From a virus (lineage: Duplodnaviria; Heunggongvirae; Uroviricota; Caudoviricetes), in IMG/VR virus record IMGVR_UViG_3300017971_000191: 64,000 nucleotides of DNA, one strand, 5' to 3'. Below the pieces are notes generated by a model. The model was not told where the DNA came from. It did not search any database and worked only from the letters and a program-made list of their open reading frames with translations. This document shows positions 5,960 through 54,977 of this stretch, piece by piece. Every line of letters begins with the position of its first letter. The first letter of the stretch is position 1. A program made the position numbers and the translations under genes.

Positions 5960-5979
5960 TCAAAAGCGGTTTTGAGGAT
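5960..5979. repeat. palindromic motif CTCAAAAGCGGTTTTGAGGA, copy 1 (intergenic, 5' of gene 5610..5943)
   Basis: Exact 20-mer shared with copies at 17386 and 43047. Confidence 0.6.
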
Positions 5980-6069
5980 CAGCCCACCCGAGCCCCCGAA
6001 GGGGCCCGGGATAGGCTGGTGCTTTCCGGTAGCGGTGCATGAGCACCTGGGGGCTTACGCCCCTGACGA

Positions 6070-7011
6070 CTACTGGAAGTCGACGCGAGCCAGACCGCTG
6101 GTGTGACCGATGGTCCCACCCATAGTCTCGTACGCGAAGAACTCCAGCATGTAGGCCTCACGACGAATGTACATCGTCGTATCTTCCAAAACGAAACTTT
6201 TGCCGATGAACTTGGGATCGGCAAAGTGGTACATCGTGTTGGTCGGCACGAGGCCCTTTTTGATCGTGATGATCCACTTGTAGCCCATGAACTCCTGGAG
6301 GGTCCACCCGTTCCGCATGATGTCTGCGGAAATGTCCCCACCCATTTCGTTCCGGGTCTGCTTGCAGACCTCCTTGATCGTGATGTTGTTCAGGAGGATG
6401 CAGTGCACCTCCAGGTTGCTGGGCGTGTTGGGCATCACCTTCACCGAGTCCCAGAGGGTGTCTCGGGTGATCCCACCAGCGATGACCTCGTGCTGGACCA
6501 CGCCCGACGTGGGCACGGTCAGACCGGGGCCGACCAGCGCGGTGTTGACGGCACGGATGAACTTGCCGTCCTCTTCCGCCAACATGTCCTTGATGGCGTT
6601 GTCCGACAAAACCTGCCGGATGTCCATCACCCAGGTGCGCAGTTCGTCGACGTCCTTGGTGAACCGAGGAGTGACGATGCGGTCGAACATCACGCGGTAG
6701 CGAGGACCGCGGATGTACAGGTTGACGGGCAAGGTCGCGAAAGGAATCGAGATTGCCGCGGGGCTCTCCGGCTCCTTGTCGATGACCTTGACGGGCTTGT
6801 CCGTGTCCACCTGCCGGTCCAACTCATCGTTGCCGATGGGGATGGGCGGCATGATGCGACGGAAGAAGCCATCTTCCCTCATCTTGACCCGGGTGAAGTC
6901 GTTGACGGCATCCACCGCCTGCTTCTCCAGCACGGGGTCACGAGAGGACAGCTTCTCGAAGATCGCCTCGTTGAGGAGTTTGGACTCCTCCATCGTCATC
7001 TGGGCACTCAT
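6070..7011 (-). CDS. putative major capsid / structural protein, about 313 aa
   Basis: It sits downstream of scaffold-like acidic proteins and a putative portal. It has no signal peptide and no recognisable enzymatic motif. The capsid call is positional and low-confidence. Confidence 0.4.
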   Translation of the reverse strand: MSAQMTMEESKLLNEAIFEKLSSRDPVLEKQAVDAVNDFTRVKMREDGFFRRIMPPIPIGNDELDRQVDTDKPVKVIDKEPESPAAISIPFATLPVNLYIRGPRYRVMFDRIVTPRFTKDVDELRTWVMDIRQVLSDNAIKDMLAEEDGKFIRAVNTALVGPGLTVPTSGVVQHEVIAGGITRDTLWDSVKVMPNTPSNLEVHCILLNNITIKEVCKQTRNEMGGDISADIMRNGWTLQEFMGYKWIITIKKGLVPTNTMYHFADPKFIGKSFVLEDTTMYIRREAYMLEFFAYETMGGTIGHTSGLARVDFQ

Positions 7012-7091
7012 CGAGTATTACCTCCGTGTGCTGGGTTGTTGGTTCGTCCGTGAAGACTGGAACCGTCAACCGTCAGCCGAAGCAAAAGCGC

Positions 7092-7622
7092 TTACGGCGT
7101 CGGGAAAACGGGGAACGGCCAGAAGGCCAGGGCCAGGTGGCCGTAACCGTTGTCGACGACACCGCGAGAGACGATGCCGACGATCATGTCGGTGTACAGC
7201 GTGCCCGCGACCAACTTGCCGGCGTTGGCACCGGTTTTCGCGGCCGTGAGCGGGTCGTTCGGCGAGTAGTCGGCATCGACGTACGCCGTGGAGACCAACT
7301 CGTAGGCGCCGACGGCCACGAGAGCCATCGCCTGCCCGGTCGGGTTGATCGCCACCCAGACGCCCTTCTCCGTGGCGGGATCTCCGCCCTCGTTGATCAC
7401 GTCGGGGTCGTCCGAGTTGTTGAAGGTGAACAGGGGCATGACGGCATCGGTGCCGACGCCCAGTTCGTACTTGCCGGAACTGTTGATGCGAACCACCGTG
7501 CCCGCAAGAACGACCGAAGTGATCGAGCTGGCGAACTCCGTGTGGAAATCGACAGCAGCGGGCTGCGGCCACCCCTTGAGGGCGTTGAGCGTGTTCGCCG
7601 TCATCTGGCGAGGAGCTGCCAT
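7092..7622 (-). CDS. putative head decoration / minor capsid protein
   Basis: 176 aa and Gly/Val-rich, immediately upstream of the capsid-like gene. It shares the strong start context CAAGGAGGATAACCCATG. Confidence 0.35.
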   Translation of the reverse strand: MAAPRQMTANTLNALKGWPQPAAVDFHTEFASSITSVVLAGTVVRINSSGKYELGVGTDAVMPLFTFNNSDDPDVINEGGDPATEKGVWVAINPTGQAMALVAVGAYELVSTAYVDADYSPNDPLTAAKTGANAGKLVAGTLYTDMIVGIVSRGVVDNGYGHLALAFWPFPVFPTP

Positions 7623-7698
7623 GGGGTTATCCTCCTTGACACTAGGTCGTGGGTTTCTGCGGACCTACGAAGTCCGTTCCATGCGGGTTGAAGAAGGG

Positions 7699-8148
7699 TC
7701 AGTGTCCGGGAGGTGCGTCGAGCACCTTCAGGATGGCCTCGTCAGAGGCCTTCTTCTGGCTCGTCTTCTTACCGACGTAGCCATCTTCGAGGCTGTTGTA
7801 ATCCCCGGCGGCCTTGTCGCCACCGAGGGAGGCCTCGTCCTCATCCGCCGGCTGACCCAGCTCGGCGGCTTGCTTCTCGATCTTGGCCTTCATGCCGGCC
7901 ATCTTCTCGATGGCCGACCGGAGCAAGCCCAGCGTCTCCGCGTGGCTGCCCAACATCGCGTCGGCGGCCTGCTTCTGCTCTTCGGAGACCGCGCCGGTCT
8001 CGATCATGAGCTGCAACAGGTCGGGTCGAAGCGCTGCGGCCTTGGTCTGGGAATCACGGTGAACTCCCAACTCGTCGAGGGCCTTCTTCGTCATCGCCGA
8101 AGAGACCGCGACGTAGTTGAGCGCCGCCGTGGCAATCTTGGTGTTCAT
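7699..8148 (-). CDS. scaffold-like helical charged protein
   Basis: The sequence MNTKIATAAL... contains helix-forming Lys/Glu/Ala repeats, and the start is preceded by GGAGGAG. Confidence 0.4.
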   Translation of the reverse strand: MNTKIATAALNYVAVSSAMTKKALDELGVHRDSQTKAAALRPDLLQLMIETGAVSEEQKQAADAMLGSHAETLGLLRSAIEKMAGMKAKIEKQAAELGQPADEDEASLGGDKAAGDYNSLEDGYVGKKTSQKKASDEAILKVLDAPPGH

Positions 8149-8218
8149 AGAACTCTCCTCCGTGAGTCGAGCTTGTCGTGTGGAAGAACGAGCAAGCAAA
8201 GCCTGGTCTCTGCCGAGG

Positions 8219-13773: not shown

Positions 13774-13775
13774 GC

Positions 13776-14834: not shown

Positions 14835-14846
14835 CCTTGCTCACCT

Positions 14847-15479: not shown

Positions 15480-15489
15480 GCTTGAGTCC

Positions 15490-18141
15490 TTAGTTCCGGG
15501 CCGTTTCGTCCAAGTCGAGATCACCCATCTCGCCGGCGATCGGCTCGACCGTCTTTTCCTTGAGGAACAAGGCCACGTCGCCCAGGGCCTCGAAGGCATT
15601 GCGGAGCGAGTCCTCCAGCTCCGGCAAGTCGGCCTTGCCGTAGCGGTCCTCGAACTCCTCCTGGTGCCAGTAGAAGAGGAACAAGATGCGGCCGAGCTTG
15701 TCCAGGGCCGTCATCAGGTCGCCCAGGTAGCGATCGACCAGGCTGTCCTGCCGGACGCTCTTCAGCAGGCCACCGATGACCGAGGTGTCGAAGACCTCCT
15801 TCTGCCCCGAGGCCGCGGCCTGCTGGGCCTGGCCCATGACGTTCTGGAAGTCCTCGGCCTGGTAGTTCTGCCAGTTATCCCAGACCTGCGGGTCGGTCAT
15901 GCCGGCGGACATCTCGTCGACCGGCATGTGCTCTTCCTGCGGCATGATCGAGCGCACGGCGTGCCGTCCGCCCATCGTCTCGATGCCCATTTCCGGGGGC
16001 ATCATCGCGGGGGCGTTCGGTCCGGGGCCGAGGGCCTCCTTGACCATGTCCTGCTTGTCCCCGAAGCCAGGCGCATAGACCATGCGAAACCGCCGGCCAC
16101 CCTTTGCCGCGGCCTGCTTGAGCATCTCCCGGGAAGCCTGCTCGGTGAGGCCGTGGTCGCGAACCAAATGGATCAGGGCCGCCCGCTTCGTGAGACGATG
16201 ATTGCCCAGGCACGAGCCGATCTGCACCTCGGAGCCGTCGTCCCAGATCTTCAGCGCGGCGGTCTTCTCGGTGAAGAGCATCTGGATGTCGTCCAACTTG
16301 CCCGGGTGAATCGGCTTGACCTCGGAGCCCGATTCACTATCCGGCTCGGCCTCGCAAGGCATCAAGTTGCACTCGTCCTTCGGCTTCTTGGGCTTGGGAG
16401 GATTCTTCAGCGTGAGAATCTTGAAGTCGCCAGGCACCCGCAGCTCGCCCTGGATCGAGCGGAGCTTCGTGCCACGATTCTCTTCGGCGTCGACGTAGAG
16501 CTTGGCTCCGTAGGGGCTGACGTAGTGCCCCGAACCCGATTCCTCAACTCTTCCAAACGTCGGGGCGTCACGGTCCCGTTCGTAAGCGTAGTCACAGTGC
16601 GACTTGAAATCGACCTTGTACGCGCCATCTCCGTAGACCTCCCGGACGACGAAGGGAACCGTCCCGTTGCCGCTTGCGCCAATGGCCAGGTACGTGCCTC
16701 CCTTCTTCAGGCTGTCCCGGTCGCCCAGATCCTCGAACCACTTGTCGAAATCCTCGCGGAGTTCGACCTTGTCGGCCCACAGGTTGGAGCGGTGAGCGTT
16801 TAGCCAGGCCTTCGAGCCGGAATCGCCGATCCGGACGACCGTGCAGAAGTCTCGCTGTCCCTCGTTGGACTGCGGGTTGGAGATAACCAGCATGCGGCTG
16901 AAGTCACCCGGCTTCTCCAGGACCTCGTAGAGCCCCGTCTCGTGCGGGTTGAGCAGCTTCTGCTCGACCTGGGTGTTGTAGGCCTTGGAGGCCTCGGAAC
17001 CGTGGGGGTCCCGCTTGTCCTTGATGAGGACGGTGTCCTTCAGCAGCTTCTCGCGATCGTCGTCGTCCAGCTCGGGGACGTTACGAGCGATGGCCACCTC
17101 TTCGTAGACGTGGATCGTCAGGGCGCCAGACTTGACGGGGTGATCCGGCTTGTCCTCTTCAGGGATCAAGCGGCACGAATCCGTCTGCATGCGACGACCG
17201 CCGCCAGGCCGTCCCTGGCCCCGTACTGATCCATCCATGGCAGGACGGTCGGCGGCGGTCTTGGGCATGATATTCGTCATGTCGGCGAGCGTGCCGCTAC
17301 GCAGCTCGCGAGCCCACCGGCTGAAACAGTCGGTGCCGTAGAAGCGATCGAACCCCTTCTTGATGAGGGGATACGCCCGCGAGATCTCAAAAGCGGTTTT
17401 GAGGAGTCCGAAGTGTTTGGGGAGGACGTTGTTGAGGTCCAGCCGGTTGGCGACCTCGGCCAGGGCCGCCTTCTGCGGGGCGGCACCGATCGCGTCCATG
17501 GCCAGTTTCGTGCCCGGTTCGGCGGTCCGGAAGAGGGCACGAGCAGCCCGATTCTTGGCGGCGGCCACCAGCGGCAGCATGCCCAGGCTCCACTCGTCGA
17601 AGCCGTGCTTGCCGAAGCTGGGGATGGAGGACATGCCTTGCATGTCGGGCATGAGCCCGCCGAGCTGGAAGGTATCCTGATCCGAGGGCTCGCCCAGGAC
17701 GTGGGGCTTCTTGGCCATCAGGTCGTTGACCCAGTTCTCCTTCATGGGCACGAAGGTGTCCTGGTTCTTGATGTACAACAGCTCGTGACCTTTGAGGTCG
17801 CCGTTGAGGAAGAACACCGGGGCGTAGAGCCACTGGTTGCCCACGCGGAAGCCGAAGATCCCCATCGCCTTGGTGGAGTCCTCGTTGCGGTCGACCAACT
17901 GGAAGCCGACCATGAAGTCGATCAGCCGGGGCGCCTTGTCCTTGAGGTAGGCGAACGCCAGCGAGCTGAACGCCTGCTCGAAGCCTTCCTCGGTGGAGCC
18001 GCCCAGGTTGGCGGTCTTGAAGAACGGTCCCCGCGTCCACTCGCGAAGCTGGTGCCGCAGAACCGCGTAGGGCTCCGACGACCGCCAGTACGTTCCGAGG
18101 TCGGTGGAGATCTTATCGAACTTGATCAGTTGTGTAAGCAT
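15490..18141 (-). CDS. large virion protein (883 aa), putative portal
   Basis: Its size and its position at the head of the morphogenesis block suggest a portal. It has no Walker A motif, so it is not a terminase. It contains an in-frame copy of the palindromic 20-mer. Confidence 0.35.
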   Translation of the reverse strand: MLTQLIKFDKISTDLGTYWRSSEPYAVLRHQLREWTRGPFFKTANLGGSTEEGFEQAFSSLAFAYLKDKAPRLIDFMVGFQLVDRNEDSTKAMGIFGFRVGNQWLYAPVFFLNGDLKGHELLYIKNQDTFVPMKENWVNDLMAKKPHVLGEPSDQDTFQLGGLMPDMQGMSSIPSFGKHGFDEWSLGMLPLVAAAKNRAARALFRTAEPGTKLAMDAIGAAPQKAALAEVANRLDLNNVLPKHFGLLKTAFEISRAYPLIKKGFDRFYGTDCFSRWARELRSGTLADMTNIMPKTAADRPAMDGSVRGQGRPGGGRRMQTDSCRLIPEEDKPDHPVKSGALTIHVYEEVAIARNVPELDDDDREKLLKDTVLIKDKRDPHGSEASKAYNTQVEQKLLNPHETGLYEVLEKPGDFSRMLVISNPQSNEGQRDFCTVVRIGDSGSKAWLNAHRSNLWADKVELREDFDKWFEDLGDRDSLKKGGTYLAIGASGNGTVPFVVREVYGDGAYKVDFKSHCDYAYERDRDAPTFGRVEESGSGHYVSPYGAKLYVDAEENRGTKLRSIQGELRVPGDFKILTLKNPPKPKKPKDECNLMPCEAEPDSESGSEVKPIHPGKLDDIQMLFTEKTAALKIWDDGSEVQIGSCLGNHRLTKRAALIHLVRDHGLTEQASREMLKQAAAKGGRRFRMVYAPGFGDKQDMVKEALGPGPNAPAMMPPEMGIETMGGRHAVRSIMPQEEHMPVDEMSAGMTDPQVWDNWQNYQAEDFQNVMGQAQQAAASGQKEVFDTSVIGGLLKSVRQDSLVDRYLGDLMTALDKLGRILFLFYWHQEEFEDRYGKADLPELEDSLRNAFEALGDVALFLKEKTVEPIAGEMGDLDLDETARN
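17386..17405. repeat. palindromic motif CTCAAAAGCGGTTTTGAGGAGT, copy 2, inside the CDS and translated LLKTAFEI
   Basis: The exact 22-mer is shared with the copy at 43047. Confidence 0.6.
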
Positions 18142-19107: not shown

Positions 19108-22100
19108 CTAGGCCGATTCTAGCCCATTTTGCGCGGCCTCGCCAATAGCAAAAGGCTCCTCCTCGAAGAGGATGGGAAATCCGCCGACCAGCGGCGCCCC
19201 GCCCATCTCGTCGAGACCTCGCTTGAAGAAGGGGTTGAAGGAGACCTCACCACGCCAGATTTCCGCCGGCGTGGCAAAGCGTTTGAGGCCCCAGCCGGCT
19301 CCGGGGAGGTGGATCGGCTCCACACCTGGGACACCCGGACGCTTCAGGTGAACATCCTCCATAATCCGTTCACCAGCCCCCATACCCTCGTGGGACAGCT
19401 CGTAGCCGGACATCTCCTGTCGCTGGCGGAGCTTTTCCAAAGACTGCTTCTGCCCGGGCGTCAGACCGCCGGCAGCCTCGATCTTCTCCAACTCGCGGAT
19501 CTGCTCGGGGAGGGCTGCTTTCTGGCTCTGAGCGGTCTCGGCCCGCTCCTGCAAGATCGGCTGGGCCTTGCCCTTCAGCGAGCTATACTCCTGGAGGGCT
19601 TCCATTCCAGCCTCGGCCGGCTCCTTGATGACGTCCTGGATGTCCATCATGCCCTGGGCGATCCCGGCGTACGGAAGGACCATCCCTTTGGCCTTATCCC
19701 AGAGCGTGCCGTCTTTCCCGTAACCGTGGCGTTCCTTGACCCGGCTCCACACCCGCGACAGCGGATCGAGGATCGACTTGTCGTTGTGCAACTGGTAGTC
19801 CCGCTGGTTGATCGGGTTGCTGGGATCGAGGCCCTCGGCCGAGCGGCGCTGATAGAGTTCCTGTTGCTGCGAACCCAAACCGTAACTCCGGCCGGCTTCC
19901 TGGGCACCGCGGATCGTCGCCTCGGTGGTACCCGCGACAGTCTCTGCGCCCGCAGCCCCCGTACTGAAGGGGCTGAAAAACTCTCCAGCGAAACCCACAG
20001 CGTCCAGGGGATTCCCTGCGGCGGCTCCTTCGATCTGCGACTGCCGACGCTGGTTGACTTGCTCGCCAGCGCTACCGTGGCCGGTAAGACCATGCTGAAC
20101 AACATTCCTGCCGGTACCAATCGCGTCCAGGGCGATCGCCAGATGGCCCAGCGGCCCTACGCCCGGCTTGGCACCCTTGGCGGCGCCCCACAGCTTGCTG
20201 GCCCCGGGGATGCGATTCATCAGTCGGGTAAGCATCCCCGGTCCGCCCTTGGGAGACATGAACTTCATGTTCCGCAGCCACTCACCGGCCCGCGTGTTGC
20301 GGAGCCACGGCAAGTAGCCAGTCCCCTTCACTGGAGCCCGCCAGAGCGTGCTCAGTCCGCGACCGATCGGGGCCAGGCCCTGACGGATCATGGCCGCCTG
20401 GCCCAGCTCCCGCGACGGGTTGGCCGGGTTGGGCATGAAACGGAGGAACATGTCCTCGGCCCAGTCAGGCGTGTAGTTCCTCACACTCTCGGGCAAGGCA
20501 TCTCGCAGGTTCGTGGGGGCTTCGTCACTGAAGACACCCGTGCCGGGCTTGGTTCCAAGGATCGTATCGAAGGCGTTGTCAACGCCCTGCTCGATCCGCT
20601 GGTCCATGGCCGCCTGGGGGTCCGCGGCAGGAGCAGCCGGCTGCTGGACTTCAGGGGCAGCTTCGGGGGTCGGCTGTTGCTGGTCAATCTGGTAGCCGGC
20701 TGGCGGGATGCCGCTGCCGCCTGCTCCCTGCCAGCCGCCGGTACCGGAGAGTGGGGAGTATCGTTGGCCGCTGGTCAAGACCCGCATGGACTGCGGCGAC
20801 ATCAGCGTTCCCATGGTCATCACGCCACCCACGCCGGGAAGCATCTTGTTGACCTGTTGAATCAGCGGCACAGCCAGCGGGCTGCCCATCATCCCCGGGC
20901 TTGCGTAGGAACCCCACTGCGGCCGAGCCGCCGGCATGGAGCCGACTTGCTCAACACCGCCAGCACCTCCCGCAGCGGCTGCTCCTGCGGCATACGGATT
21001 TCCGCCTGTACCCGCCGAAGGTACAGTTGTACCCATCTGCGCAGAGGGACTCGGACCGACCCCCTGCGCAGAACGCTCGGCGGCTCCCTGGACTCCGCCC
21101 GAGGTGCCGGGGGGAGTCGAAGTCGGTTTCTTGTACGGAGCAGGAAGCGAGGCGATTTTCTCCAGCTCGGCGTCCGAGGAGAGTTTGAACCGGCCACCGA
21201 ACCAGCTCTTGCGTACCGGCTTCGGCTTACGCTGCTCGGTCTGCTCACTGGCCAGGCTCGGCCGGGGTGGCTCGAATCCGGGGCCAGGCTTGCGGACGAC
21301 GCTGTTCGGCGTGCGGCCGAAATTGGTCGAGCGGGCCAGGGCGGGGACAAAGGAGCTGCCCCGCTCCTCGCTGGTGCCGCCTCGCTGGGCCGCGCTGAGC
21401 AAGCTCTTCTTCAAGCCGGAGCCGTAATGCCGGACCAGCCAGTCGGGGTCGTGCTGCATGGAGTACATGCCACGAATCATCTCCGGCTCGAAAGGCGGCG
21501 GGTTCTTGTGTACACTGAGCGTGTTCACTCCGAATCGCTCGAACTCCCGGAGCATCGAGGGCCGGACCTTCGTGCCGATCGTATAATGGAGGACAGGGCG
21601 TTCAAGGTACTGGCCAACCGCCCTCCGAGGTTCGACATCCTCGTAGTCCTCACGAGGCGTGTACCGGTGTTCGAGCGTTGAATACGGAATGACGTCACCC
21701 GGAACTCCGTCTTCGTATTCCTCGGTGAGTCTGACATGGTTGATAAGCCCCCTACTGAGCAGCTCGGTGTTTCTCCGGTGAGCCTTGAGCCCTGCATCCT
21801 GCAAAGCCTGGCGGAAAGCCCACGTGAAGTAACGACGTCCCTCGCCAACGCCTTTATGTCGAACGATCTGACCCGGATTCGGGAGACCCTCCGAAAGCAC
21901 GTCCCCGGCTTCGACCGTATCACCCTTCTTGACTTTCAAGTCGAAGCCCTGGCCCACATAGTGCTGCTCGCCGTCGATGGTGACGTAGTTACCACCCGCG
22001 GGAGCTTTCTCGATGCGACCCACGGTCCCATCGACCTGGGCATGTGCCGCGCCGCCTTTCATTACCCGTGGCGTCTGGACTAGCTGGTTGATCCGCTCGA

Positions 22101-23148
22101 ACCCCGAGACAGCCTTGTCCTCCCCGGCCACGCCTCCGCCGTGCTTGGCCGAGATCTGCGCTTGGGTCAGAGGCTCGGAGAGAGCCTGGGCGGCTGTGAG
22201 TCCAACCATCTCACCAAGTCCCGGAAGGTTACCGCGTTCACGTACACCCACGTCTCGCGAGTAAACGCCGCCTTCGGGCGAACCTCCGATAATCGGAGAC
22301 CTGACCAGGATTCGATCATGTCCCATTCGTTGGAGGTGCTTGAGGATCTTGGGGGTGAGATGGGTGTTTCGTTTGTAGGGTCCTGCGTCATAGGCCAGCA
22401 GCGCTCCTTCGTTATCCATGTCGTTGGTGTCGACGGGCATGCCGCGGAGGACCTTGGGTGCCTCCTCCTCGTCCTCGTCGACGACGACCAGCCGGTGAGC
22501 CACCTGGTTGAGCTGCTTGCTGAGGAAGCCGGCGTCCCGGGTGGCGGACTTCAAGGCGATGACGCCGTGGCGGGCACCGTAGGTGCCGGCCCAGTATTCT
22601 TCCGGCGACAAGCCTTCACTGTAGCTGCGAAGGATGGGGATGGGAAGCGGCCGTCCCCGGTGGTCCACGTAAAGCATGTCGGAGCCGCGGAGGCTTGCCA
22701 GGTTCATCTTGTTGCCGCGCGAACCGGACAGAACCTGAAGGGCCAGCGGGTTGCCCTCCTCCAGCGACTCCTTGAGGATTGCCTCTTGTTGGGGTTCTAT
22801 CTCCCGGCCGATGGCCCGCACGATCAGCTCTTCCCGTCTCCTGTCGTCCAGGTCATCGCGGTCAAGGATCTTCGCCAGGGCGTTGGTGAGCTTCTGGCGA
22901 GTCTTGACGGCGGCACGGGCTTTGCCCAGGTGTTTGACGCCGAAGGCCATGCCCCCGGACTCCTGGGACGCGCGGCTGCCAATCTCCAACAGCTTGTGGG
23001 AGATCTCCCGATACTTGTCGGGATGCTTCTCGGCGACCTCGCGCAACAGACTGGAGAGCCCCTTCTTGTCGAGGACCCGGTCGTAGTCGCGCATATCGTC
23101 GGGCAGCGTCTCGTTGACGAGATGCTGCCCCAGAGTTGCCGTTCGCAT
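19108..23148 (-). CDS. RNA polymerase beta-prime C-terminal half (regions F, G, H) plus a roughly 800-aa Gly/Pro/Gln-rich C-terminal extension
   Basis: SGSRGN...GARHG...LVV matches beta-prime region F. SEPLTQAQISAKHGGGVAG matches region G (GEPGTQLTMRTFHIGG). Confidence 0.7.
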   Translation of the reverse strand: MRTATLGQHLVNETLPDDMRDYDRVLDKKGLSSLLREVAEKHPDKYREISHKLLEIGSRASQESGGMAFGVKHLGKARAAVKTRQKLTNALAKILDRDDLDDRRREELIVRAIGREIEPQQEAILKESLEEGNPLALQVLSGSRGNKMNLASLRGSDMLYVDHRGRPLPIPILRSYSEGLSPEEYWAGTYGARHGVIALKSATRDAGFLSKQLNQVAHRLVVVDEDEEEAPKVLRGMPVDTNDMDNEGALLAYDAGPYKRNTHLTPKILKHLQRMGHDRILVRSPIIGGSPEGGVYSRDVGVRERGNLPGLGEMVGLTAAQALSEPLTQAQISAKHGGGVAGEDKAVSGFERINQLVQTPRVMKGGAAHAQVDGTVGRIEKAPAGGNYVTIDGEQHYVGQGFDLKVKKGDTVEAGDVLSEGLPNPGQIVRHKGVGEGRRYFTWAFRQALQDAGLKAHRRNTELLSRGLINHVRLTEEYEDGVPGDVIPYSTLEHRYTPREDYEDVEPRRAVGQYLERPVLHYTIGTKVRPSMLREFERFGVNTLSVHKNPPPFEPEMIRGMYSMQHDPDWLVRHYGSGLKKSLLSAAQRGGTSEERGSSFVPALARSTNFGRTPNSVVRKPGPGFEPPRPSLASEQTEQRKPKPVRKSWFGGRFKLSSDAELEKIASLPAPYKKPTSTPPGTSGGVQGAAERSAQGVGPSPSAQMGTTVPSAGTGGNPYAAGAAAAGGAGGVEQVGSMPAARPQWGSYASPGMMGSPLAVPLIQQVNKMLPGVGGVMTMGTLMSPQSMRVLTSGQRYSPLSGTGGWQGAGGSGIPPAGYQIDQQQPTPEAAPEVQQPAAPAADPQAAMDQRIEQGVDNAFDTILGTKPGTGVFSDEAPTNLRDALPESVRNYTPDWAEDMFLRFMPNPANPSRELGQAAMIRQGLAPIGRGLSTLWRAPVKGTGYLPWLRNTRAGEWLRNMKFMSPKGGPGMLTRLMNRIPGASKLWGAAKGAKPGVGPLGHLAIALDAIGTGRNVVQHGLTGHGSAGEQVNQRRQSQIEGAAAGNPLDAVGFAGEFFSPFSTGAAGAETVAGTTEATIRGAQEAGRSYGLGSQQQELYQRRSAEGLDPSNPINQRDYQLHNDKSILDPLSRVWSRVKERHGYGKDGTLWDKAKGMVLPYAGIAQGMMDIQDVIKEPAEAGMEALQEYSSLKGKAQPILQERAETAQSQKAALPEQIRELEKIEAAGGLTPGQKQSLEKLRQRQEMSGYELSHEGMGAGERIMEDVHLKRPGVPGVEPIHLPGAGWGLKRFATPAEIWRGEVSFNPFFKRGLDEMGGAPLVGGFPILFEEEPFAIGEAAQNGLESA

Positions 23149-26321: not shown

Positions 26322-29300
26322 CTACTGATCCAAAATCTGTACCTGGTCGTCCAGGGACAGCTTGCCGGCTGCGTAGGCCGCCCTGGCGTCGGCCAAAGTG
26401 TGAAACTTCCGCACCGATTGTTTGCTTCGTGACTTGGTGGCGTGGTAGAGACCGCCGACGAACTCCTGCCCGGGAGCATGCACCGGGGACTTGAAATCGG
26501 CCGGGCTGAGCAGGTTGGCCGAAGGCAGCATCCGCTCGTAGGCCTCCTTGACGGCCGCCGCGTCCGTGGGGACGTGGAAGTTCATCTGGTCGCCGTCGAA
26601 GTCGGCGTTGAACCCCTTGACAATCAGGGGGCTCACTTGCATCGTGCTCCCCTTCACCAGCTTGGGGCGGAAGGCGAGGATGCCAAACTTGTGCAGCACG
26701 GGGGCGCGGTTGATGAACACCGGCCGCTCGTCCATTTCCTCGACGAGCGTTTCCCGGGCCAGGGGGGTACGATCCTTGATCTGCTGGAGGGCCCGGGTCA
26801 GAGGAACCCCCTGTCGACGCATACGCCTGGCGATGAATTTTCCGTAAATATCGAAGGCCGCATCCTCGGGCAGGCCCACCGTGTCCATGTCGAAATCGGG
26901 GTTGGGGGTGATCACGGACCGGCCGACGTTGTCCACTGTCGTGGAGATCAGCTTACGCTGCACGGTGCCGAACTTGGGAGAGCTTCCAAAAACGCTTTTG
27001 AGGATTCCCCGCACGTTCTTCTCGCGGCTCTTCTGGCTGATCGGATCTCCCAGGCCGGTGACTGCCTTGAAGGCGTGGTAGACGGCCAGCCGCTCCGGGC
27101 CAGCACCCTCGTCCCCCAGCTCCTTCTTCATGGCCGCCAGGTTATCGTTGGCCTCCATCAGCTCCTTGTAGAGGTAGTTGGCGTCGGAGATCATCGGCAG
27201 GTCGTTGTCCATCATCGAGACCGGGCGGAACGCCGGCGGCAGCACCGGGGCCCGCTTCAACACCCAGTCGCCAGGATGGATACCGAGCTTCTTGGCCCGC
27301 TTGAGATAGTCGAGCTTGCGGACAGCTTGGTCCCTCTCCGTCTTGCTGCCTTGCGAGACTTGGGCCCTTGCCATGGACAACTCTTTGTCCAAGTTGAGGG
27401 CTTGCAAGGCTTTACCGATGGCCTGGGCGCCGGTGCCGAACTTGGGCAGCTCATGGTCCCCGGAGATGACGGCCTCGAACTTGGCCTTGGTCAGCCCGAG
27501 CACGCGACGGATCGGCTCCTCCATCACCGGATTGGGCATCGGCTCGGTCAGGCGGATCGCAGACCATCGCCGACCGGAGTGGCCGCCGGTGAGCTTCTTG
27601 TCGAACAGACCGCCCCGGATGGGACGCAGGCCCCGGCCCCAATCGACGCCGTCGTTCTTCATCAGGTTGCGATCCCCGGCCAGCTCGTCGACGTCCTTGT
27701 CGGTCAGCGCCATGATGTTCGTCTGCGTGCCCTCGCGGACGACGTTGATCCCCGAGGCCCGGAGTTGCTCGACGAATTTATGGTAGGCCATCGGCACCCG
27801 AGGCATCGGCGGGTTGTGCCCCATCATGAACTGGAGCCAGTAGTCCTCGTTCCGCTGACCACGAATGGCGCCCACGTCTTCCAGGTTGTGGACCGCTCCA
27901 TGGCTAAGCAGGGCGTTGGTGTCCAGCAGGGCGACTCGCTTGGAACCTTGCTTGCCGCCCTTGGCCGGGGCGTCCTCGGCCGTGTAGGCGCCGCCGCCTC
28001 GTCCCTGCTCCTTGGCTTCTGCTTGATGGTGGAGCTTCATGAAGAAGCGATTACCGGTAGGGATGCCGCGGATCTTGGAGTCGTTGCTAGGGTCGATGAT
28101 GTCCTCGGTGTCCGACAATCCGGCCTTGCGGAGCTGCTCGCGGGCCCAATCCACGTAATCGCGGCTGTCGTCCCAATCCTCGACCCGAATCGGCTTGCCC
28201 TGCTTGGCAGCCAACTTGCCCAACCACAGCTCGATCTTTTGCGACGGATTGGTCCGGCCGATAATCCCCAGCGGATTCAGCAGCACCTCGAAAGGCTTCC
28301 CGTCCTGCCCCTGCGGCATCTGCGCGTCGGGGATGATCGCGGAAATGACGCCCTTGTCTCCGTATCGTCCTGAGAGCTTGTCTCCCTTTTGCATGGGAGA
28401 CGTACTCTTGACGAGGACCACCGGCCCTTTCTTGCCGTCAACAACGTCGGTAACGATTCCGGGATCGTTATGATCCCAGACAATACTATGATCTGCATGG
28501 GACGCCTGCTTCCTCTTGTGGACCTTGTTGTGCGACAGCTCCCGCTGGCGTGCCGCCAAGATCAACGGATGCCCCTTCTCGACCTCGGTTCCCGGTTTGA
28601 CGACTCCGCGGTCGTCCAGCGTCTCCAGGATCTTGCGCTCGTATCGGGACGGAAACAGGCTGACATAGGTCTTCTTACCGATCTTCGTTCTGTCGTCGAC
28701 CTCCAGCTCATTCTGGTACATGTGCTCCGAGGCCAGCTTCTTGGCAAAACCCTCGGAGATCACGATGGCGTCTTCGTGGTTTTTCCCCTGCCAGGAGACG
28801 TAGGCCACCCGGGCGTTGCGGCCCAGGGCCGTGGCGCCGCGCTCGTCGGTGTAGTTCGAGCGGGCCAGCAAGGCACCAGGAGCAAACCTCTGGCCGGGCC
28901 GGACCAGGGGTGTCTGGTGCAGGTATGTCTTCCGGTTGAAAGGGAAATGGTGGTACAGCTCGATGCTGTCCTCGCTGCCGTCGTCGTAGCGGACCTTCAT
29001 GCCGTCGTCGTCGATACCCAGCACCCGGCCGCCGCGTTTGGCGTGAACCGCCCCCATCTGCTTGGCGTACTCCTCCTCGTAGCTTCGGCCGCCACGGGTC
29101 CCGGGCATCGCCGACTGGACCCAGGGGGACTCAGGCTCGACCAGGGGCAGCGCCTGGGTGAGCATCCGCGAGGCCATGGCCATCCGCTGCCCCTTGACGG
29201 CGCCCTTCATGGGGACCAGGTTGCCCAGCGGGGAGAAGGCGTCCTCGAAATTGGGCATCACCAGGTTGACGTCCCGCTTCTTGGCCCAGATCATCTTGCT

Positions 29301-42656: not shown

Positions 42657-44138
42657 TCACGCCGCCGCTGCCTCCAACTCTTCGACCACGGTCGGAGCCG
42701 AATCCGCCAGGCGACCGGCGGCGTTCACGCCGCGATCGTCCCAGTAGACGTCGGCCAACACCTTGTCGGAAGCATCGTCCGGTTGGTCGGGGTTGTGGTT
42801 GACGAAGTCATACGGGATCTCGTTCTCCTTGAGCCACTTCTTCACCATCCCCGTGTCGCCGCGGACGGTGAAGACGATGACCCGGGCACCGATGCTCTTG
42901 AACTTCGTCAGCCACTTCTTGGCGCCGGGGCGAGGAGGGCCGATCGACTTGGGATCGAAAGGCTCCTCTTTCACCGCAATCGTGCCGTCCAGGTCGACGG
43001 CCACGGTGGGAATGTGTTCGTCGTCGGCCGCGAGCTTCTGGAGAACCTCAAAAGCGGTTTTGAGGAGTTCCTCGTCCGGCGTCTCTGCCGCCTGCCGCTC
43101 CTTCTCCGCCGCGTCGTCCTCCCCCGCCCGCCGCAGCACTTCACTGACCTCGTCGTCGGAGAGGACCTGGCGGATCTTCATGCCGCCGCCGATAAGCCAC
43201 TCACCGCCCTGCATCCTCGGGGCCTTCTTCCGGTAGTGCCCACCCTCCGGCACCTGGTCGCGGACATCGCCGGTCGGGCTCGCATCGGCGACTGCTTGCC
43301 AGTCGACATCGTCGGGCAGCTCGACCTCGGCCCATACCCGGCCGGGCTGAATCCGATCCCGCTTCGACCGCAGATGCGGAGCGGACGGCAGCGCTCCCGC
43401 GTGCCAGCCGGGCCTCGGGGCAAAGCCCTCGGTGGGGATGTTCTCCGCCTCGACCCACTCCTCCCGGGGCACCGGGTTCGTCTTGTCGATGAACAGCGGG
43501 AACAGCTCCCCGGGCCGCGTCGGTAGGGTGCGGAAGAGCTTGTAGGCCTGGACCGTGTCTTCCGCCGCCTTGGCGAAGGCGCCGTCCTCGATGGCCTTTT
43601 TGGTGTTGCCGTACTCCAGCCACCACTTGAGCTGGGGCACGGTTAGCGGGAAGATGCTCCCCAGGCCCTTCCAGCCACGCTCGTAGTTGGCCAGGTAGAC
43701 CTTGCGAGCCTGGGCCTCGGTAGTTGTCCCCAGGACCACCTTGTGCTCGTCGAACTTGCCGCTGCCGGGGTCGACCTGGTTGACGACGAAGACCAGCTCA
43801 CTGTGGCGATCGGGGCCGAGAAAGACGTCCACCTGGTCGCCGTCCTTGCCCTCGCTACGGGAGAAGTACCCGTAGTCGTGCTGCATCTCGATCTCCCAGC
43901 CGTCGCCGGATCGGATGGAGCCCTTGGGGTTCTCGATGACGATGGTGAGCCCCTGCCAGGAATACTTCCCCTTGCGGTAGTTGCCGGCCTCGGCTTGGGC
44001 CTCAGAGGGATTGGTGTCAGTCGCCTGCCTGGCCTCGGTTAGGGTGGCCGCCAGCTTGGTAAGCCCGGCAAACTCTCCCCCCAGCTCCGCCAGAGTCAGG
44101 CCCTTCGGGAGCAACAAATCGGCGACTTTCTCGTTCAT
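42657..44138 (-). CDS. two-domain protein with a C-terminal HAD-superfamily phosphatase domain (VDLDGT motif)
   Basis: ATG (MNEKVADLL) chosen because csrA occupies the opposite strand over the track's N-terminal extension. The DxDGT motif plus downstream Lys and Asp fit HAD motifs I-III. It contains an in-frame palindromic 20-mer. Confidence 0.5.
   Translation of the reverse strand: MNEKVADLLLPKGLTLAELGGEFAGLTKLAATLTEARQATDTNPSEAQAEAGNYRKGKYSWQGLTIVIENPKGSIRSGDGWEIEMQHDYGYFSRSEGKDGDQVDVFLGPDRHSELVFVVNQVDPGSGKFDEHKVVLGTTTEAQARKVYLANYERGWKGLGSIFPLTVPQLKWWLEYGNTKKAIEDGAFAKAAEDTVQAYKLFRTLPTRPGELFPLFIDKTNPVPREEWVEAENIPTEGFAPRPGWHAGALPSAPHLRSKRDRIQPGRVWAEVELPDDVDWQAVADASPTGDVRDQVPEGGHYRKKAPRMQGGEWLIGGGMKIRQVLSDDEVSEVLRRAGEDDAAEKERQAAETPDEELLKTAFEVLQKLAADDEHIPTVAVDLDGTIAVKEEPFDPKSIGPPRPGAKKWLTKFKSIGARVIVFTVRGDTGMVKKWLKENEIPYDFVNHNPDQPDDASDKVLADVYWDDRGVNAAGRLADSAPTVVEELEAAAA
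43047..43066. repeat. palindromic motif CTCAAAAGCGGTTTTGAGGAGT, copy 3, inside the CDS and translated LLKTAFEV
   Basis: The exact 22-mer is shared with the copy at 17386. Confidence 0.6.
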
Positions 44139-49904: not shown

Positions 49905-49916
49905 TCTGCCTCCTGT

Positions 49917-50561: not shown

Positions 50562-50562
50562 T

Positions 50563-51350: not shown

Positions 51351-51386
51351 TGGACAGTTCCTCGTCACACACGTCTTTTGTCGAGT

Positions 51387-52250
51387 TCAACGTAGGGTCA
51401 CAGACCCTACCACATCCTCTTCCGGAGGACGTTCCAGCGTGCGGACGTTGAAGTGCCCGACCGCCACCTTCACGTACTCCAGCACGTCGTCCGTAACATT
51501 CGGGCAACGCGCCCCGTGAAACACGGGGCCAGCATACTCGCCCAGGAACTCCTCTCGACTCTTGACGTTGAGGCCGTGGTAAATGGCCACATGGAGACAG
51601 GGCCCGGGAAACCAGTCCGGGCCGTTATCAAGGATGACGCGCCGCTCGCCGAACTGCTCGACGAACTGCTTGTCTTCGCCAGGCGCTCCGTTCTCCGGAA
51701 AGAACGGAGAGTCCGCGGCGGACCACAACACCGTACTGGCGTGGCCCAGGCTTTCCACCGGAACGCAGATCACCGTGTTCCGGATGTCGACACGAACCTG
51801 GTGGGAGAGCAACACACAGCAACCCTCGACACGGTGGGCCATCTGGAAGGCCACGCGATGAGGATGGCTATGATCATCGTCGTCGATCGACAGCAGCCAA
51901 TCGCCCTTCGCCTCCCGGATAGCACGATTCCGTAGACCACCGATGGTCGGGTAGTCGTCCCGGGGGACGAGGAACTCGCGTACCAGAGGATGATCGTGGG
52001 TCGTCACACGACGGCCCGACGAGTTGACGATGACGATTTCTTTGCGGCTGTAGGTCTGGCGAACAAACTGGTTCACCGTGGTTCGTGCAATCACGAGCCT
52101 TCGCGGATCGGCTAGTACCAAAAGACCGGTGACCAAAGGACAAGGCTGCCCGCGGTGGGTAGTCGCCTCGGCGTTGGTCTCCTGGTTCTCATCCGACTGA
52201 CCGGGCTTGTCCCCAACATCGTCTAAGGTCGGAGGGACCAGGGTAGGCAT
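51387..52250 (-). CDS. family-2 glycosyltransferase
   Basis: LLVLADPRRLVIARTTVNQFVRQTY...IVIVNSSG...LLSIDDDD. Confidence 0.5.
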   Translation of the reverse strand: MPTLVPPTLDDVGDKPGQSDENQETNAEATTHRGQPCPLVTGLLVLADPRRLVIARTTVNQFVRQTYSRKEIVIVNSSGRRVTTHDHPLVREFLVPRDDYPTIGGLRNRAIREAKGDWLLSIDDDDHSHPHRVAFQMAHRVEGCCVLLSHQVRVDIRNTVICVPVESLGHASTVLWSAADSPFFPENGAPGEDKQFVEQFGERRVILDNGPDWFPGPCLHVAIYHGLNVKSREEFLGEYAGPVFHGARCPNVTDDVLEYVKVAVGHFNVRTLERPPEEDVVGSVTLR

Positions 52251-52302
52251 CAGACAGTTTACTCCTGGGGTCGTTGTTCGAGTTTAGTCGACTGACCGGC
52301 CT

Positions 52303-53304
52303 TTACAGGCTGGACAGCAGCGAGGCAAAGGAAACGCTGAAGGCCTCCGCGAAGGGAGACGGCTTCGGCTCCACCTGTGCCACCGGTCGCTTGCCTACCT
52401 CCATGCCCAGCCATTGCGGCCGGTTGCTGACGTCGAGATCACCCGGGCCCAACGGCCACGGAGGCGCCGCATGCGCAGCACGAGACGGCTTCCAGTGCGG
52501 ATCAGGCTCACTGAAGACCAGATGGCTGCTAGTGGGCGTCATGTAGAGCTTCTCGATGTCGAGGACATCCTTGTACTCAATACGCTCTCGCTCCCTGTGG
52601 CGACACCGCGGACAGACGTCCGTCGAAGTGTCGACCTTCTCGTGCAGCACCCAGTTTCTGGTGAAACCCATCGGCTCGCCCGCCTCGTGGGTCAGGCAGC
52701 GATGGTAGAAGCCGCACTTCTTGCAACGCATGAAGGCGATCTTCAATTCCTCCAGCGACCGGGTGAACTTCACGGGCAAGAGCCCTCCCATGAAGATGCG
52801 GTCGACCTGGAGCCGGCGGTCGCGCTGGCAAGCCATCAACTGGAGCGGGAACCGCCTTCCCTGGGCGTCGAACAACGCGGGAAAGGCATCGCAGTTGCGA
52901 TTCTCCTCGTAGCGCAGCTCGGGGAGAAAACCCTTTGGGGAGCACACGCACACTGACTGGGCGAACGCCTGGCGATCGTGAGGGATAAGGAACTGCGCAC
53001 CGACCCACGGCTGCGACCGCAAGGGCCGGTAGACGAGCAGCTCATCAACCAGGGACACCTGCCCGTCGTCCTGGTGAAGGACCGAGGTGCCCGGGGGAGT
53101 AAAGTCGGTCTCGACAGTGAGTCGAGATGTACCCTTGCCAAAGCTCTTCTCCGTATCGGGGGACGGAGAAAACGGCAAGGCCTTCTTCTCTGTTGCAGCG
53201 GCGTCGACTGCCACCGCAGAAGCACCCAGGCCCAGCGGGATCGCCAGGCCGCCAAGGCACTTCGTAAGGAAACCACGTCGGGAGTCTCCCATCAGTACCT
53301 CCAT
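52303..53304 (-). CDS. Tat-signal exported Cys-rich protein (CKKCGFYHRC...CPRCRHRE)
   Basis: SRRGFLTKCLGGLAIPLGLGASAVA twin-arginine signal. Confidence 0.5.
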   Translation of the reverse strand: MEVLMGDSRRGFLTKCLGGLAIPLGLGASAVAVDAAATEKKALPFSPSPDTEKSFGKGTSRLTVETDFTPPGTSVLHQDDGQVSLVDELLVYRPLRSQPWVGAQFLIPHDRQAFAQSVCVCSPKGFLPELRYEENRNCDAFPALFDAQGRRFPLQLMACQRDRRLQVDRIFMGGLLPVKFTRSLEELKIAFMRCKKCGFYHRCLTHEAGEPMGFTRNWVLHEKVDTSTDVCPRCRHRERERIEYKDVLDIEKLYMTPTSSHLVFSEPDPHWKPSRAAHAAPPWPLGPGDLDVSNRPQWLGMEVGKRPVAQVEPKPSPFAEAFSVSFASLLSSL

Positions 53305-53444
53305 TCGAGAAAGGCGTACACCGGGGAAGGCAACCTAAAGCTACCTACCTGCTGGAGAATCTAACACAGGAGGGGATCAATTACAAGCCGAGCTGACAAG
53401 CTAGGCAGATTTTCCCATCCCCAGTGCTAGCATGATATTAAGCT

Positions 53445-53486
53445 GCGCAAAAGACAAGGCCAGGGCTGGGCGACCCTGGCCTTGTC
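53445..53486 (-). terminator. perfect 13-bp inverted repeat (GACAAGGCCAGGG / CCCTGGCCTTGTC, loop CTGGGCGA) followed on the minus strand by CUUUUGCGC
   Basis: Seen directly in the sequence. It lies downstream (minus-strand sense) of the tRNA-like element. The flanking GCGCAAAAG context matches the 4621 hairpin. Confidence 0.5.
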
Positions 53487-53549
53487 TACCGTCCGAGTGG
53501 AAGCGGGAAAGTGACCGGCTCTCCCCGATACCACCATTGCACGAATAGG

Positions 53550-53624
53550 GGCCGGCGGAGGGAATCGAACCCCCAACCTTCTCCGCCCGTAGGCTGAGAC
53601 GCTCTGTCACTGAGCTACGCCGGC
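53550..53624 (-). tRNA. tRNA-like element with a non-canonical anticodon arm (possible pseudo-tRNA, attachment-site core, or unusual tRNA)
   Basis: Reverse complement reads GCCGGCG-TA-GCTC-AGTGACA-GAGC-G-[TCTCAGCCTACGGGCGGAGA]-AGGTT-GGGGG-TTCGATT-CCCTC-CGCCGGC-C. The acceptor stem, D-arm and T-arm (GGTTCGATTCC) are canonical. The anticodon arm is 20 nt instead of 17. Confidence 0.4.
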
Positions 53625-53847
53625 GCGACACCGACCCCTTGAAAAGCCGCGGGGCGGTTCGATCCCGCCCATTTCCGCCCTGGTTGTCTCCGGCGAGCAG
53701 GAGGGCAACGGCCCAGTGCTGCGTCGGACGCTAAGAGCGACGTCCTCGCTTAGACGACGCGGCTCGGCCACCGGCCGGTAGGACCTCCGGTCGGCGTCCA
53801 GTGCATCTGACAATCAACCCTGATTGTAGCGGTAGACTTGTTGCAAG

Positions 53848-54957
53848 TCAAGCGCCGGCCAGCTTCTTCCGCTGCACCGTCCACTCGGGATGCTGGAGAG
53901 TCCACTCGATGACCCGAGAGAGGGTCTGCTCGAAGGTGAACGGGGGCGTCCAGCCGAGACTGGCCAGCTTGGAGCCGTCCAGGGCATAGCGGCGATCGTA
54001 ACCAGGACGGACCTGGTCCCCCCTCACATGCCTGGTATAGAGAGGCTTGCCCATCTGATCGGCCACCTTGCCAGCCAGGTCGAGGACGTTCAGCTCCGTC
54101 TCCCCCACGATGTTGAAGCGGCCGGGACACGAAGCTCCCTCGCCCTGCCGGTACATCGGGGGATCGACCTCCTCCAGGATGAACCGCAGGGCGTCGGCCA
54201 TGTTCTTGGCGTCCAACCAGACCCGCTTGGCAATCCGTTCCGGCGAGTCGCCGTGGATCTCTACCGTCTCGCCGTGGAGGATCTTCTGGATCACCTTGGG
54301 CAGGAACTTCTCGGGGTCCTGGCGCTCACCGATCACGTTCATGGTGTTGGTGATCATGATCGGCATGTCGTAGGTCCGCCAGTAGGCGATGCACAACGCT
54401 TCCTGGGCCGCCTTGGAGGCCGAGTAGGGGTTGCTGGGCATGATCGTGGCCCACTCGGGATGCCCGGGACCGTCCCAGCCGGCATCGCCGTAGACCTCGT
54501 CGGTGGAGATGTGGAGGAACTTGAACGGCAGCATGTTCGGCAAGCTGTAGTTCGGCCCCCTGAACAACTCCAGCATGTTGAGGATGAGCTGCGTGTTGTT
54601 CAGCCAACATCGAGCCGGGTCGGTGATCGAACGGGTCACGTGGGAGTCGCTGGCCAGGTTGAGGACGTAATCGAACTGATCGACCAGGGCACGCTCCTCC
54701 ACAACTTCGTAGAGCAGGTTGCCCCACACGTCGGAGAACGGCACCGTCATATCAGCCTTGTGCAGCTTCAGGCGACCCTTCGCCTCGTAGGCTTGCAGCT
54801 CGGGACTGATCCGCGTGCGGTCTCCCTTGTGGAGAGGATGCCAGGAGTCGACCCCCACGACGATCCAATCCGTTCGATCGAGAATCCACTGGGCCACGTG
54901 GTGGCCGATAAACCCACCGATACCGGTGAGCAAGAGTCGAGGAGTTCGGGTGTTCAT
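53848..54957 (-). CDS. NAD-dependent sugar-nucleotide 4,6-dehydratase / epimerase (extended short-chain dehydrogenase/reductase family)
   Basis: Rossmann motif TGIGGFIGHH, plus YSASKAA (YxxxK) and ASDSHVTRS. Confidence 0.6.
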   Translation of the reverse strand: MNTRTPRLLLTGIGGFIGHHVAQWILDRTDWIVVGVDSWHPLHKGDRTRISPELQAYEAKGRLKLHKADMTVPFSDVWGNLLYEVVEERALVDQFDYVLNLASDSHVTRSITDPARCWLNNTQLILNMLELFRGPNYSLPNMLPFKFLHISTDEVYGDAGWDGPGHPEWATIMPSNPYSASKAAQEALCIAYWRTYDMPIMITNTMNVIGERQDPEKFLPKVIQKILHGETVEIHGDSPERIAKRVWLDAKNMADALRFILEEVDPPMYRQGEGASCPGRFNIVGETELNVLDLAGKVADQMGKPLYTRHVRGDQVRPGYDRRYALDGSKLASLGWTPPFTFEQTLSRVIEWTLQHPEWTVQRKKLAGA

Positions 54958-54977
54958 CTCAAAACCGCTTTTGAAGT
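54958..54977. repeat. palindromic motif (opposite loop orientation: CTCAAAACCGCTTTTGAAG) filling the entire spacer between the GT-D stop and the dehydratase ATG
   Basis: The motif abuts the ATG with no Shine-Dalgarno sequence in between. Confidence 0.5.

Follow-up and report, generated by a model that had tools for sequence, protein, structure and literature searches.

What might a phage gain from keeping one short palindrome, almost letter for letter, both between its genes and inside them? The question is raised by a stretch of 64,000 nucleotides (the window) from a Caudoviricetes virus, IMG/VR record IMGVR_UViG_3300017971_000191, at 60–66% GC, in which an AT-rich 18-mer, CTCAAAAGCGGTTTTGAG, recurs exactly. 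This element, hereafter the motif, is a perfect dyad of 7+7 bp around a four-nucleotide loop that is found in both orientations. The window is part of an uncultured jumbo phage of ~236 kb (a 236,137-bp ENA contig), in which it was placed by exact-protein look-ups; JGI and Logan contigs are 99.9% identical to it, and a search for nucleotide matches between the window and deposited phages returned none. Our answer is a tentative one, held with somewhat less than even confidence: the motif may be a promoter for the phage's own RNA polymerase, giving leaderless mRNAs where it abuts an ATG.

Analysis of GC content at third codon positions (GC3) places all genes of the window on the minus strand, and the motif is best read on that strand, which corrects the gene orientation of an earlier sequence-only reading of this DNA. 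The exact copies read CTCAAAAGCGGTTTTGAG on the plus strand, and the common form in gene orientation is CTCAAAACCGCTTTTGAG. Five sites are found in the window:

5959..5976, minus strand: exact intergenic copy, reading CTCAAAACCGCTTTTGAG, then A, then AGGAG, with an ATG at 5942
17386..17403, minus strand: exact copy within an 883-aa open reading frame (ORF; 15490-18141), translated LLKTAFE (aa 246-252)
26985..27002, minus strand: degenerate copy CTCAAAAGCGTTTTTGGA of uncertain function with three mismatches, within the RNA polymerase beta-beta' fusion gene, translated ILKSVFG
43047..43064, minus strand: exact copy within a 643-aa ORF (42657-44588), translated LLKTAFE (aa ~508-514)
54958..54975, minus strand: flipped-loop copy TTCAAAAGCGGTTTTGAG with one mismatch, starting 2 nt after a TAA stop and abutting the ATG at 54957

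The sequence-only reading had described these sites with the first starting at 5960 and the degenerate one at 26986, each one nucleotide off. Its account otherwise holds for the exact recurrence, the in-gene translations, the Shine-Dalgarno sequence and ATG after the first copy, and the 54958 copy, which with 2 nt makes up the whole 20-nt spacer between the TAA stop and the next ATG. A 20-mer is common to all three exact copies, and a 22-mer to those at 17386 and 43047. Chance recurrence, which that reading had called negligible, was checked against dinucleotide-shuffled controls: at up to three mismatches they held 0.04 matches on average against the five sites of the window, and none of 100 reached the observed count. 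An assembly artefact is rejected as well, as the same sites recur in independent ENA and JGI assemblies (L126-L129).

The two intergenic copies of the window lie among the following features:

6070-7011: major capsid protein gene
5987..6010, minus strand: GC-rich terminator-like hairpin CCCGGGCCCC-TTCG-GGGGCTCGGG, forming a 10-bp GC stem on folding
5610..5942, minus strand: 110-aa gene that follows the 5959 copy and has a normal Shine-Dalgarno sequence
53848..54957, minus strand: epimerase/dehydratase gene whose ATG abuts the motif, without a Shine-Dalgarno sequence; a candidate for a leaderless mRNA

The copy at 5959 is found 93 nt past the stop codon of the capsid gene and 10 nt downstream of the hairpin that follows this gene; it lies 4 nt before the AGGAG and 16 nt before the ATG of the 110-aa gene.

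Scanning IMG/VR gave seven stretches with exact copies on a 107-kb contig of the same JGI sample, and a metagenome scan gave this contig again together with a 37.6-kb contig from a sister sample. In total 157 kb of the genome were analysed, including 74.5 kb of the 107-kb contig that was reassembled and an extension of the window on both sides. The motif is by far the most repeated 12-mer in these 157 kb (11 copies), in which we have identified 14 motif sites. Ten of these are intergenic, against a share of 11.6% for non-coding DNA (binomial P = 3e-7), and four lie in genes; a bias toward the 5' ends of genes, for which the sequence-only reading had proposed a count, is thus present. Six copies begin 1-3 nt past the stop codon of the upstream gene, and the ten intergenic ones are located 0, 0, 0, 2, 11, 16, 16, 22, 31 and 72 nt from the next start codon. 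The four genes at 0-2 nt all begin with ATG and none has a Shine-Dalgarno sequence; after the copies 11-31 nt away, canonical AGGAG-type sites are found in four cases and a weak GAGA at the 22-nt site. Around 75% of the genes in the genome have a Shine-Dalgarno sequence, and most of the others are coupled to their neighbors by overlapping or adjacent stop and start codons. The motif-abutting starts are credible, with the Rossmann motif of the epimerase and the DxH motif of an SbcD/Mre11-like nuclease lying few residues from the N-terminus; for the epimerase this N-terminal motif fixes the ATG at 54957, and JGI and ENA gene calls both have the same start.

Moreover, all ten intergenic copies are followed by an A and eight of them are preceded by a C, whether the loop is GCGG or CCGC. 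These conserved flanks make the element directional relative to the genes despite its symmetric core. A rule by which a GCGG loop would go with an abutting ATG and a CCGC loop with a Shine-Dalgarno leader (4/5 versus 0/4, Fisher P ~0.04) was considered and abandoned, being broken by the relative L216. A split Shine-Dalgarno sequence in the manner of T4 gene 38 was ruled out too, as no Shine-Dalgarno sequence is found upstream of the stem. At one site of the 107-kb contig (c107_1), a perfect 16-bp palindrome, ATTCCCGATCGGGAAT, occupies positions 3875-3890 between the motif copy at 3857 and the next ATG.

The copies inside genes were followed to the level of codons. Relatives of the 883-aa protein align without gaps across the motif, with LLEAAYD, LLFKAYA and LVKSAVA at the place of LLKTAFE, and the closest ones (capsid 92% identical) have MLKTAFD, written with the codons CTG AAG ACG GCC TTC GAC. 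The window phage writes CTC AAA ACC GCT TTT GAG at 17386; the third position differs in all six codons, synonymously in five, and the GC3 of the gene is 0.87. With the codon usage of the phage, the probability of the exact motif given the peptide is ~3e-4; each of the motif hexapeptides is expected 0.003 times in the proteome, against three occurrences in total, which are always coded by the exact motif. As the alignment is gapless and the same peptide is written elsewhere with other codons, the 17386 copy is neither an insertion nor a consequence of protein constraint, and at this site, by the codon comparison, the DNA or RNA sequence itself was selected or converted. An in-frame mobile palindrome, one of the roles offered by the sequence-only reading, is therefore rejected at 17386, the copy at which it could be tested. 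The 43047 copy lies exactly between two PHROG matches (aa 345-498 and aa 526-624 of the 643-aa protein). When IMG/VR was searched with this protein and with the 883-aa one, no relatives were returned. The frame LLKTAFE is shared by both copies because one of the three frames holds a TGA stop in both orientations of the motif, and this blocked frame halves the significance of the sharing.

The spacing of the copies is regular as well. A piece of the 107-kb contig (c107_4), the 37.6-kb contig (L168) and the extended window overlap into a contiguous 101.7 kb, along which the gaps between copies are 10.8, 18.3, 11.9, 16.1, 9.6, 11.4 and 10.8 kb. Compared with random placement, the minimum gap has P = 2e-4 and the coefficient of variation P = 7e-4 with the degenerate copy included, and P = 8e-4 and P = 0.02, respectively, with it excluded; when counted, the 26985 copy makes the spacing more even. 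Elsewhere in the genome, one pair of copies is 6.6 kb apart and another 10.0 kb apart.

As a hairpin the motif is weak. Its 7-bp, AT-rich stem folds at -3.9 to -4.8 kcal/mol as RNA and at ~-4 kcal/mol as DNA, and with the natural flanks it is no better than shuffles. The stem carries no U-tract, and strong GC-rich hairpins adjoin two of the copies, one upstream of the 5959 copy and another immediately downstream of a copy outside the window (L126 15889). An intrinsic terminator is ruled out by the weak stem, the missing U-tract and these separate hairpins. The suggestion of an RNA processing or termination hairpin in the sequence-only reading, which had itself proposed a check of hairpin stability, thus loses its termination half, and a hairpin recognised by a protein in the RNA is kept among the rivals weighed below. 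No Rfam family matches the motif; the sole Rfam match of the window is a tRNA at 53550-53624.

Among the relatives of this phage the exact 18-mer is confined to it, and related elements are carried by the close ones (L215, L216/L218, L219 and L353/L354), in which the motif was sought as the sequence-only reading had advised. Four intergenic copies of the form T[AC][AT]AAA-N4-5-TTTTGA, all in one direction and with a strict right and a loose left arm, are found in L216/L218 (capsid 87% identical), while L219 has four copies of the form (T/C)CAAAA(A)CCGG(T)TTTTGA at intervals of ~5-6 kb. The site following the capsid gene can be compared directly. There the order hairpin, element, Shine-Dalgarno sequence, gene is kept with CTCAAAACCGCTTTTGAG in the window, CCAAAGACATCTTTTGA in L215, CCAAAGATATCTTTTAG in L353/L354 and CTAAAAGCCAGTTTTTGA in L216, so that the last three have a diverged AT-rich dyad at the same spot; in L217, L219, L223 and every more distant relative, the hairpin and the Shine-Dalgarno sequence stand there without the element. 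At one further junction, stop and start codons are coupled by 1 nt in L353/L354, a Shine-Dalgarno sequence is present in the window phage, and a spacer made of a motif variant, without a Shine-Dalgarno sequence, is found in L216.

Outside this group, an IMG/VR scan with the loop left free (CTCAAAANNNNTTTTGAG) gave only unrelated single matches. Searches for the exact 18-mer in metagenomes (84 loci) and genomes (55 loci) also gave nearly all unrelated singles, the exceptions being the contigs of this phage and Paenarthrobacter sp. Z7-10. On scaffolds 71, 68 and 2 of the latter (L303 1396 and 2019; L305 17 and 940; L315 3280) the 18-mer is the apex of a much longer hairpin repeat, ACTAACAGCAGATGCA-18mer-TGCATCTGCTGTTAGT, which folds at ~-26 kcal/mol as DNA and whose copies share a tail ending in AATCTGTGGATAAC. 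Compensatory changes are seen in the outer stem of one copy, and another feature, the outer-arm variant TTTTGAA / TTCAAAA, is shared by one copy with the window copy at 54958. The location of two copies at the ends of their scaffolds (L305 position 17, L303 position 2019) suggests that the repeat is multi-copy; it has no match in plasmid or phage collections, nor in Rfam. This occurrence may be a link to the host or a coincidence, the latter being possible because a palindromic 18-mer has only 11 free positions. One exact 18-mer was also found in a distant relative on a 49.7-kb contig of 45% GC (L003 5798, identical to L136 10467), in frame as LKTAFE within a 179-codon open frame counted from stop to stop; three homologues of window genes are present there at 24-30% identity. 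The overlapping stretches analysed from this contig (13.3 kb in L003, 14.7 kb in L136) hold no further copy, and the single copy is indistinguishable from chance.

If the motif is read as DNA, an enzyme to read it is at hand, as the window codes for a multisubunit RNA polymerase:

26322..30764, minus strand: RNA polymerase beta-beta' (N-terminal part) fusion, 1480 aa, with Pfam matches Rpb2_6, Rpb2_3, Rpb1_1 and Rpb1_2
19108..23148, minus strand: RNA polymerase beta' C-terminal part, 1346 aa, with Pfam match Rpb1_5

The 1480-aa fusion, which is 31% identical to the RNA polymerase beta of Salmonella phage Arash by tblastn, is the candidate enzyme. Capsid homologues number 1650, many of them on contigs of 200-240 kb with GC contents from 0.43 to 0.69, and the window phage sits in a large clade of uncultured jumbo phages. 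Its nearest cultured relatives are Arash and Vibrio phages D69, D148 and D181, at ~30% identity for capsid and polymerase. Polymerase beta and beta' rank among the most abundant proteins of the Arash virion, with beta in first place, and a sigma-like protein is packaged along with them (PMC10585845); the polymerase of the window phage is probably packaged in the virion likewise. The words most repeated in the 66 kb of Arash examined, tRNA genes aside, are GGTATAAGTA with seven copies and TGGTATAAGTAA with four, and both resemble an extended -10 promoter element.

From the placement of the motif, its directional flanks, the starts lacking a Shine-Dalgarno sequence and the order hairpin, motif, gene, we infer that it acts as a promoter, with transcription starting at the conserved A and the phage polymerase as reader. 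Of the roles proposed by the sequence-only reading this is the best supported, given the location before starts, the abutting starts, the A flank and the polymerase of the phage's own; a nuclease or recombinase site, also on its list, is neither favoured nor disfavoured by the data. The compact signal C-CTCAAAA-SCGS-TTTTGAG-A would be read as DNA by this multisubunit enzyme, probably carried in the virion, or by a factor recruiting it, and transcription would begin at the A directly after the motif. A motif abutting an ATG would yield a leaderless transcript, and this would explain the missing Shine-Dalgarno sequence of the genes concerned; from a motif 11-31 nt upstream, a short leader with a normal Shine-Dalgarno sequence would result. 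Copies every ~10-18 kb could restart transcription along the long co-directional gene array, and where no gene junction is at hand a copy may be written into the coding sequence through mostly synonymous changes. The phage enzyme would be the natural reader because the phage encodes its own polymerase and because the virion polymerases of other jumbo phages use long, AT-rich promoters that are highly conserved and do not tolerate deviation, those lying inside ORFs being known in AR9 (PMC5312081). Host readers and common regulatory sites were considered too. A host sigma-70 promoter fails: with TTGAGA as its -35 element, transcription would start within genes in which conserved motifs set the N-terminus. 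The motif does not fit the consensus sequences of IHF, CIRCE, LexA and Zur sites.

Several observations weigh against the promoter. Promoters are seldom perfect dyads that occur with the loop either way round, and such a layout is more typical of sites bound by dimeric proteins. The 6-nt start offset of phiKZ- and AR9-type promoters is impossible at the copies 0-2 nt from an ATG. The L126 15889 copy has its strong GC hairpin straight after the motif, which is awkward for a start site. The genes downstream of the copies form no obvious temporal class, and ~20 copies per genome are too few for the sole promoter type. Finally, no sigma-like factor was found in the 157 kb, against which tblastn of the sigma-like Gp10 of Arash returned no homologue, and the 66 kb of Arash examined (L352 + L356, 1-66000) contain no comparable palindrome, having the ordinary -10-like repeat TGGTATAAGTAA instead.

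The main rival is an operator or roadblock, on whose dyad a dimeric DNA-binding protein of the phage would block or gate read-through in units of ~11 kb and so exert temporal control in a stoperator-like manner. The perfect dyad in both loop orientations speaks for it, as do the orthologous sites of relatives, which keep the dyad and change its sequence (AAAGAT-ATCTTT in L353, AAAACC-GGTTTT in L219), and the even spacing and the presence of copies in genes. The 17-bp dyad repeats of Cluster O mycobacteriophages, with their similar distribution, are a precedent. A possible binder can even be named: one copy stands 31 nt upstream of the gene (c107_3 11479-12405) for a 308-aa protein with a long lysine-rich, histone-like tail and weak matches to DUF1016_N and ParB-HTH (E = 0.005 for the latter), a candidate DNA-binding protein judging by its sequence, though the ParB-HTH match of this only candidate is below the curated cut-off. 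Yet a symmetric dimer site does not explain why the flanks are asymmetric in gene direction, with C before and A after, and it leaves unexplained how genes 0-2 nt past the motif are translated without a Shine-Dalgarno sequence; we find the operator doubtful, though worth serious thought. Less likely, in our view quite unlikely, is a signal in the RNA, in which a CUCAAAA-NNNN-UUUUGAG hairpin would serve an endoribonuclease that cleaves 3' at the stem base and leaves an mRNA beginning with AUG, or a translational regulator, or would aid re-initiation. The RNA stem is the same in both orientations, the loop alone differing; the sole arm variant of the window (TTC... at 54958) keeps a G-U wobble pair in the sense RNA, and stop and start codons close around the stem base. 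However, the hairpin is no more stable than described above, Rfam offers no family for it, and the elements of relatives are unusable as RNA hairpins, that of L353 being a loopless 12-bp palindrome and that of L216 having its outer pairs broken, while the copies in genes would have the phage cut or block its own long mRNAs.

The regular gaps, from 9.6 to 18.3 kb over the contiguous 101.7 kb, could also be what is selected, if the motif were an anchoring or loading site for a condensing, partition-like or topology protein in the manner of parS, NBS, SBS or matS. A palindromic site and in-gene copies made by synonymous changes would suit this role. The strong enrichment between genes and before starts is unlike known chromosome-organising sites, however, the flanks are directional, and two copies in another part of the genome are just 6.6 kb apart, so we regard a purely genome-organising site as improbable. 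Most improbable of all is a selfish or neutral repeat, a REP- or MITE-like palindrome spread by transposition or gene conversion and useless to the phage. Exact copies in both orientations, often straight after stop codons, would be expected from it; in L216 a motif-sized insertion separates two genes that relatives keep tightly coupled, and the same 18-mer caps the multi-copy long hairpin repeat of Paenarthrobacter sp. Z7-10. Nonetheless, the in-gene copy that was tested arose by substitution codon by codon, the spacing is regular and not clustered, the directional flanks are conserved, and the post-capsid element keeps its place across diverged relatives.

Known systems were compared with the motif. 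Start-associated sequences of Cluster K phages are, like it, conserved short sequences right upstream of the starts of a subset of genes. They are asymmetric and have a Shine-Dalgarno-like core, whereas the motif is symmetric, lacks such a core and occurs in genes as well, which sets it apart from this class. Phage N4 has a single-subunit virion polymerase that reads DNA-hairpin promoters with a 3-nt loop and specific purines, the short inverted repeat lying just upstream of the start. A virion-carried polymerase would be common to both phages, and a start at the A would put the dyad centre of the motif at ~-9 to -10. Stoperators of Cluster A phages resemble the motif in their many dispersed copies at gene junctions and at start and stop codons, where they act on transcription, but they are asymmetric sites in one orientation to transcription, to which the immunity repressor of a temperate phage binds; the motif is symmetric, and the 157 kb show no sign of a temperate lifestyle. 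The early promoters of AR9, phiKZ and phiR1-37 are similar in that the phage encodes a multisubunit polymerase and a long, AT-rich, near-invariant element stands upstream of genes in tens of copies per genome. Their known elements are AAATATATATTAT-(6N)-G and AACA-(6N)-TA/G, with starts 6 nt downstream in phiKZ and phiR1-37 and leaders of 26-491 nt (PMC5312081). Unlike them, the motif is palindromic, can abut an ATG and resembles neither AAATATATATTAT-(6N)-G nor the phiKZ consensus, and the window phage belongs to another clade than phiKZ and AR9. The 17-bp dyad repeats of Cluster O, TGTTCGGNNNCCGAACA, are mostly intergenic, with about one third in coding sequence and a predicted dimeric binder (PMC4351075). 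They are, like the motif, dispersed near-exact short palindromes found between and inside genes, but their sequence is another one, they are reported not to be closely tied to translation starts and to become denser at one genome end, whereas the motif copies stand at stop/start junctions and are evenly spaced. As the motif shares features with each of these systems and fails at least one defining feature of each, we class it as a dispersed short regulatory repeat of the phage genome outside any named family.

Perhaps the motif is more than a promoter of known kind. It could be a new promoter type for a multisubunit virion polymerase, recognised as symmetric DNA or as an extruded DNA hairpin and firing at the A to give leaderless mRNAs, with a selected spacing of ~11 kb that overwrites coding sequence and doubles as units of genome organisation. 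We consider this full combination unlikely; if it is true, the 18-mer of Paenarthrobacter would point to a shared host factor or host lineage.

Other features of the phage deserve mention. The window also codes for a ribonucleotide reductase and a large sugar-modification gene cluster, which extends from ~51000 to 64000 and over 8.5 kb past the window end (L128/L129). Its genes include a dTDP-sugar isomerase, several glycosyltransferases, a DegT aminotransferase, methyltransferases, a sulfotransferase, a GDP-mannose-dehydratase-like epimerase, an HpcH lyase and a MaoC hydratase; the virion, the DNA and the cell surface are all possible targets. The epimerase gene is directly followed by an unusually long non-coding stretch of 555 nt (53293-53847), which holds sigma-70-promoter-like sequences and a tRNA gene on the minus strand at 53548-53624 (50.8 bits in Rfam), to which ARAGORN assigned no anticodon. 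A segment of 163 nt at 34972-35134 is 82% identical to ~6816-6978 within the major capsid gene, ~28 kb away, and this similarity suggests that it is part of a second, partial or paralogous capsid-like gene. In L216, a few genes downstream of the capsid gene, a 1294-aa protein (12989-16873) consists mostly of collagen-like repeats with a 9-nt period (GGN NNN CAA GG...); the window phage has no equivalent at that position.

Relatives with similar capsids are very common in metagenomes and none is cultured. A single, readily recognised signal of this kind would be an entry point to their transcription units and to what their polymerase recognises. It marks gene junctions, replaces the ribosome-binding site at some genes and is evenly spaced. 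Moreover, the codons at 17386 show plainly how a nucleic-acid signal can override codon bias within a conserved protein. If the motif is indeed a promoter of leaderless mRNAs, it would be a compact and portable expression signal.

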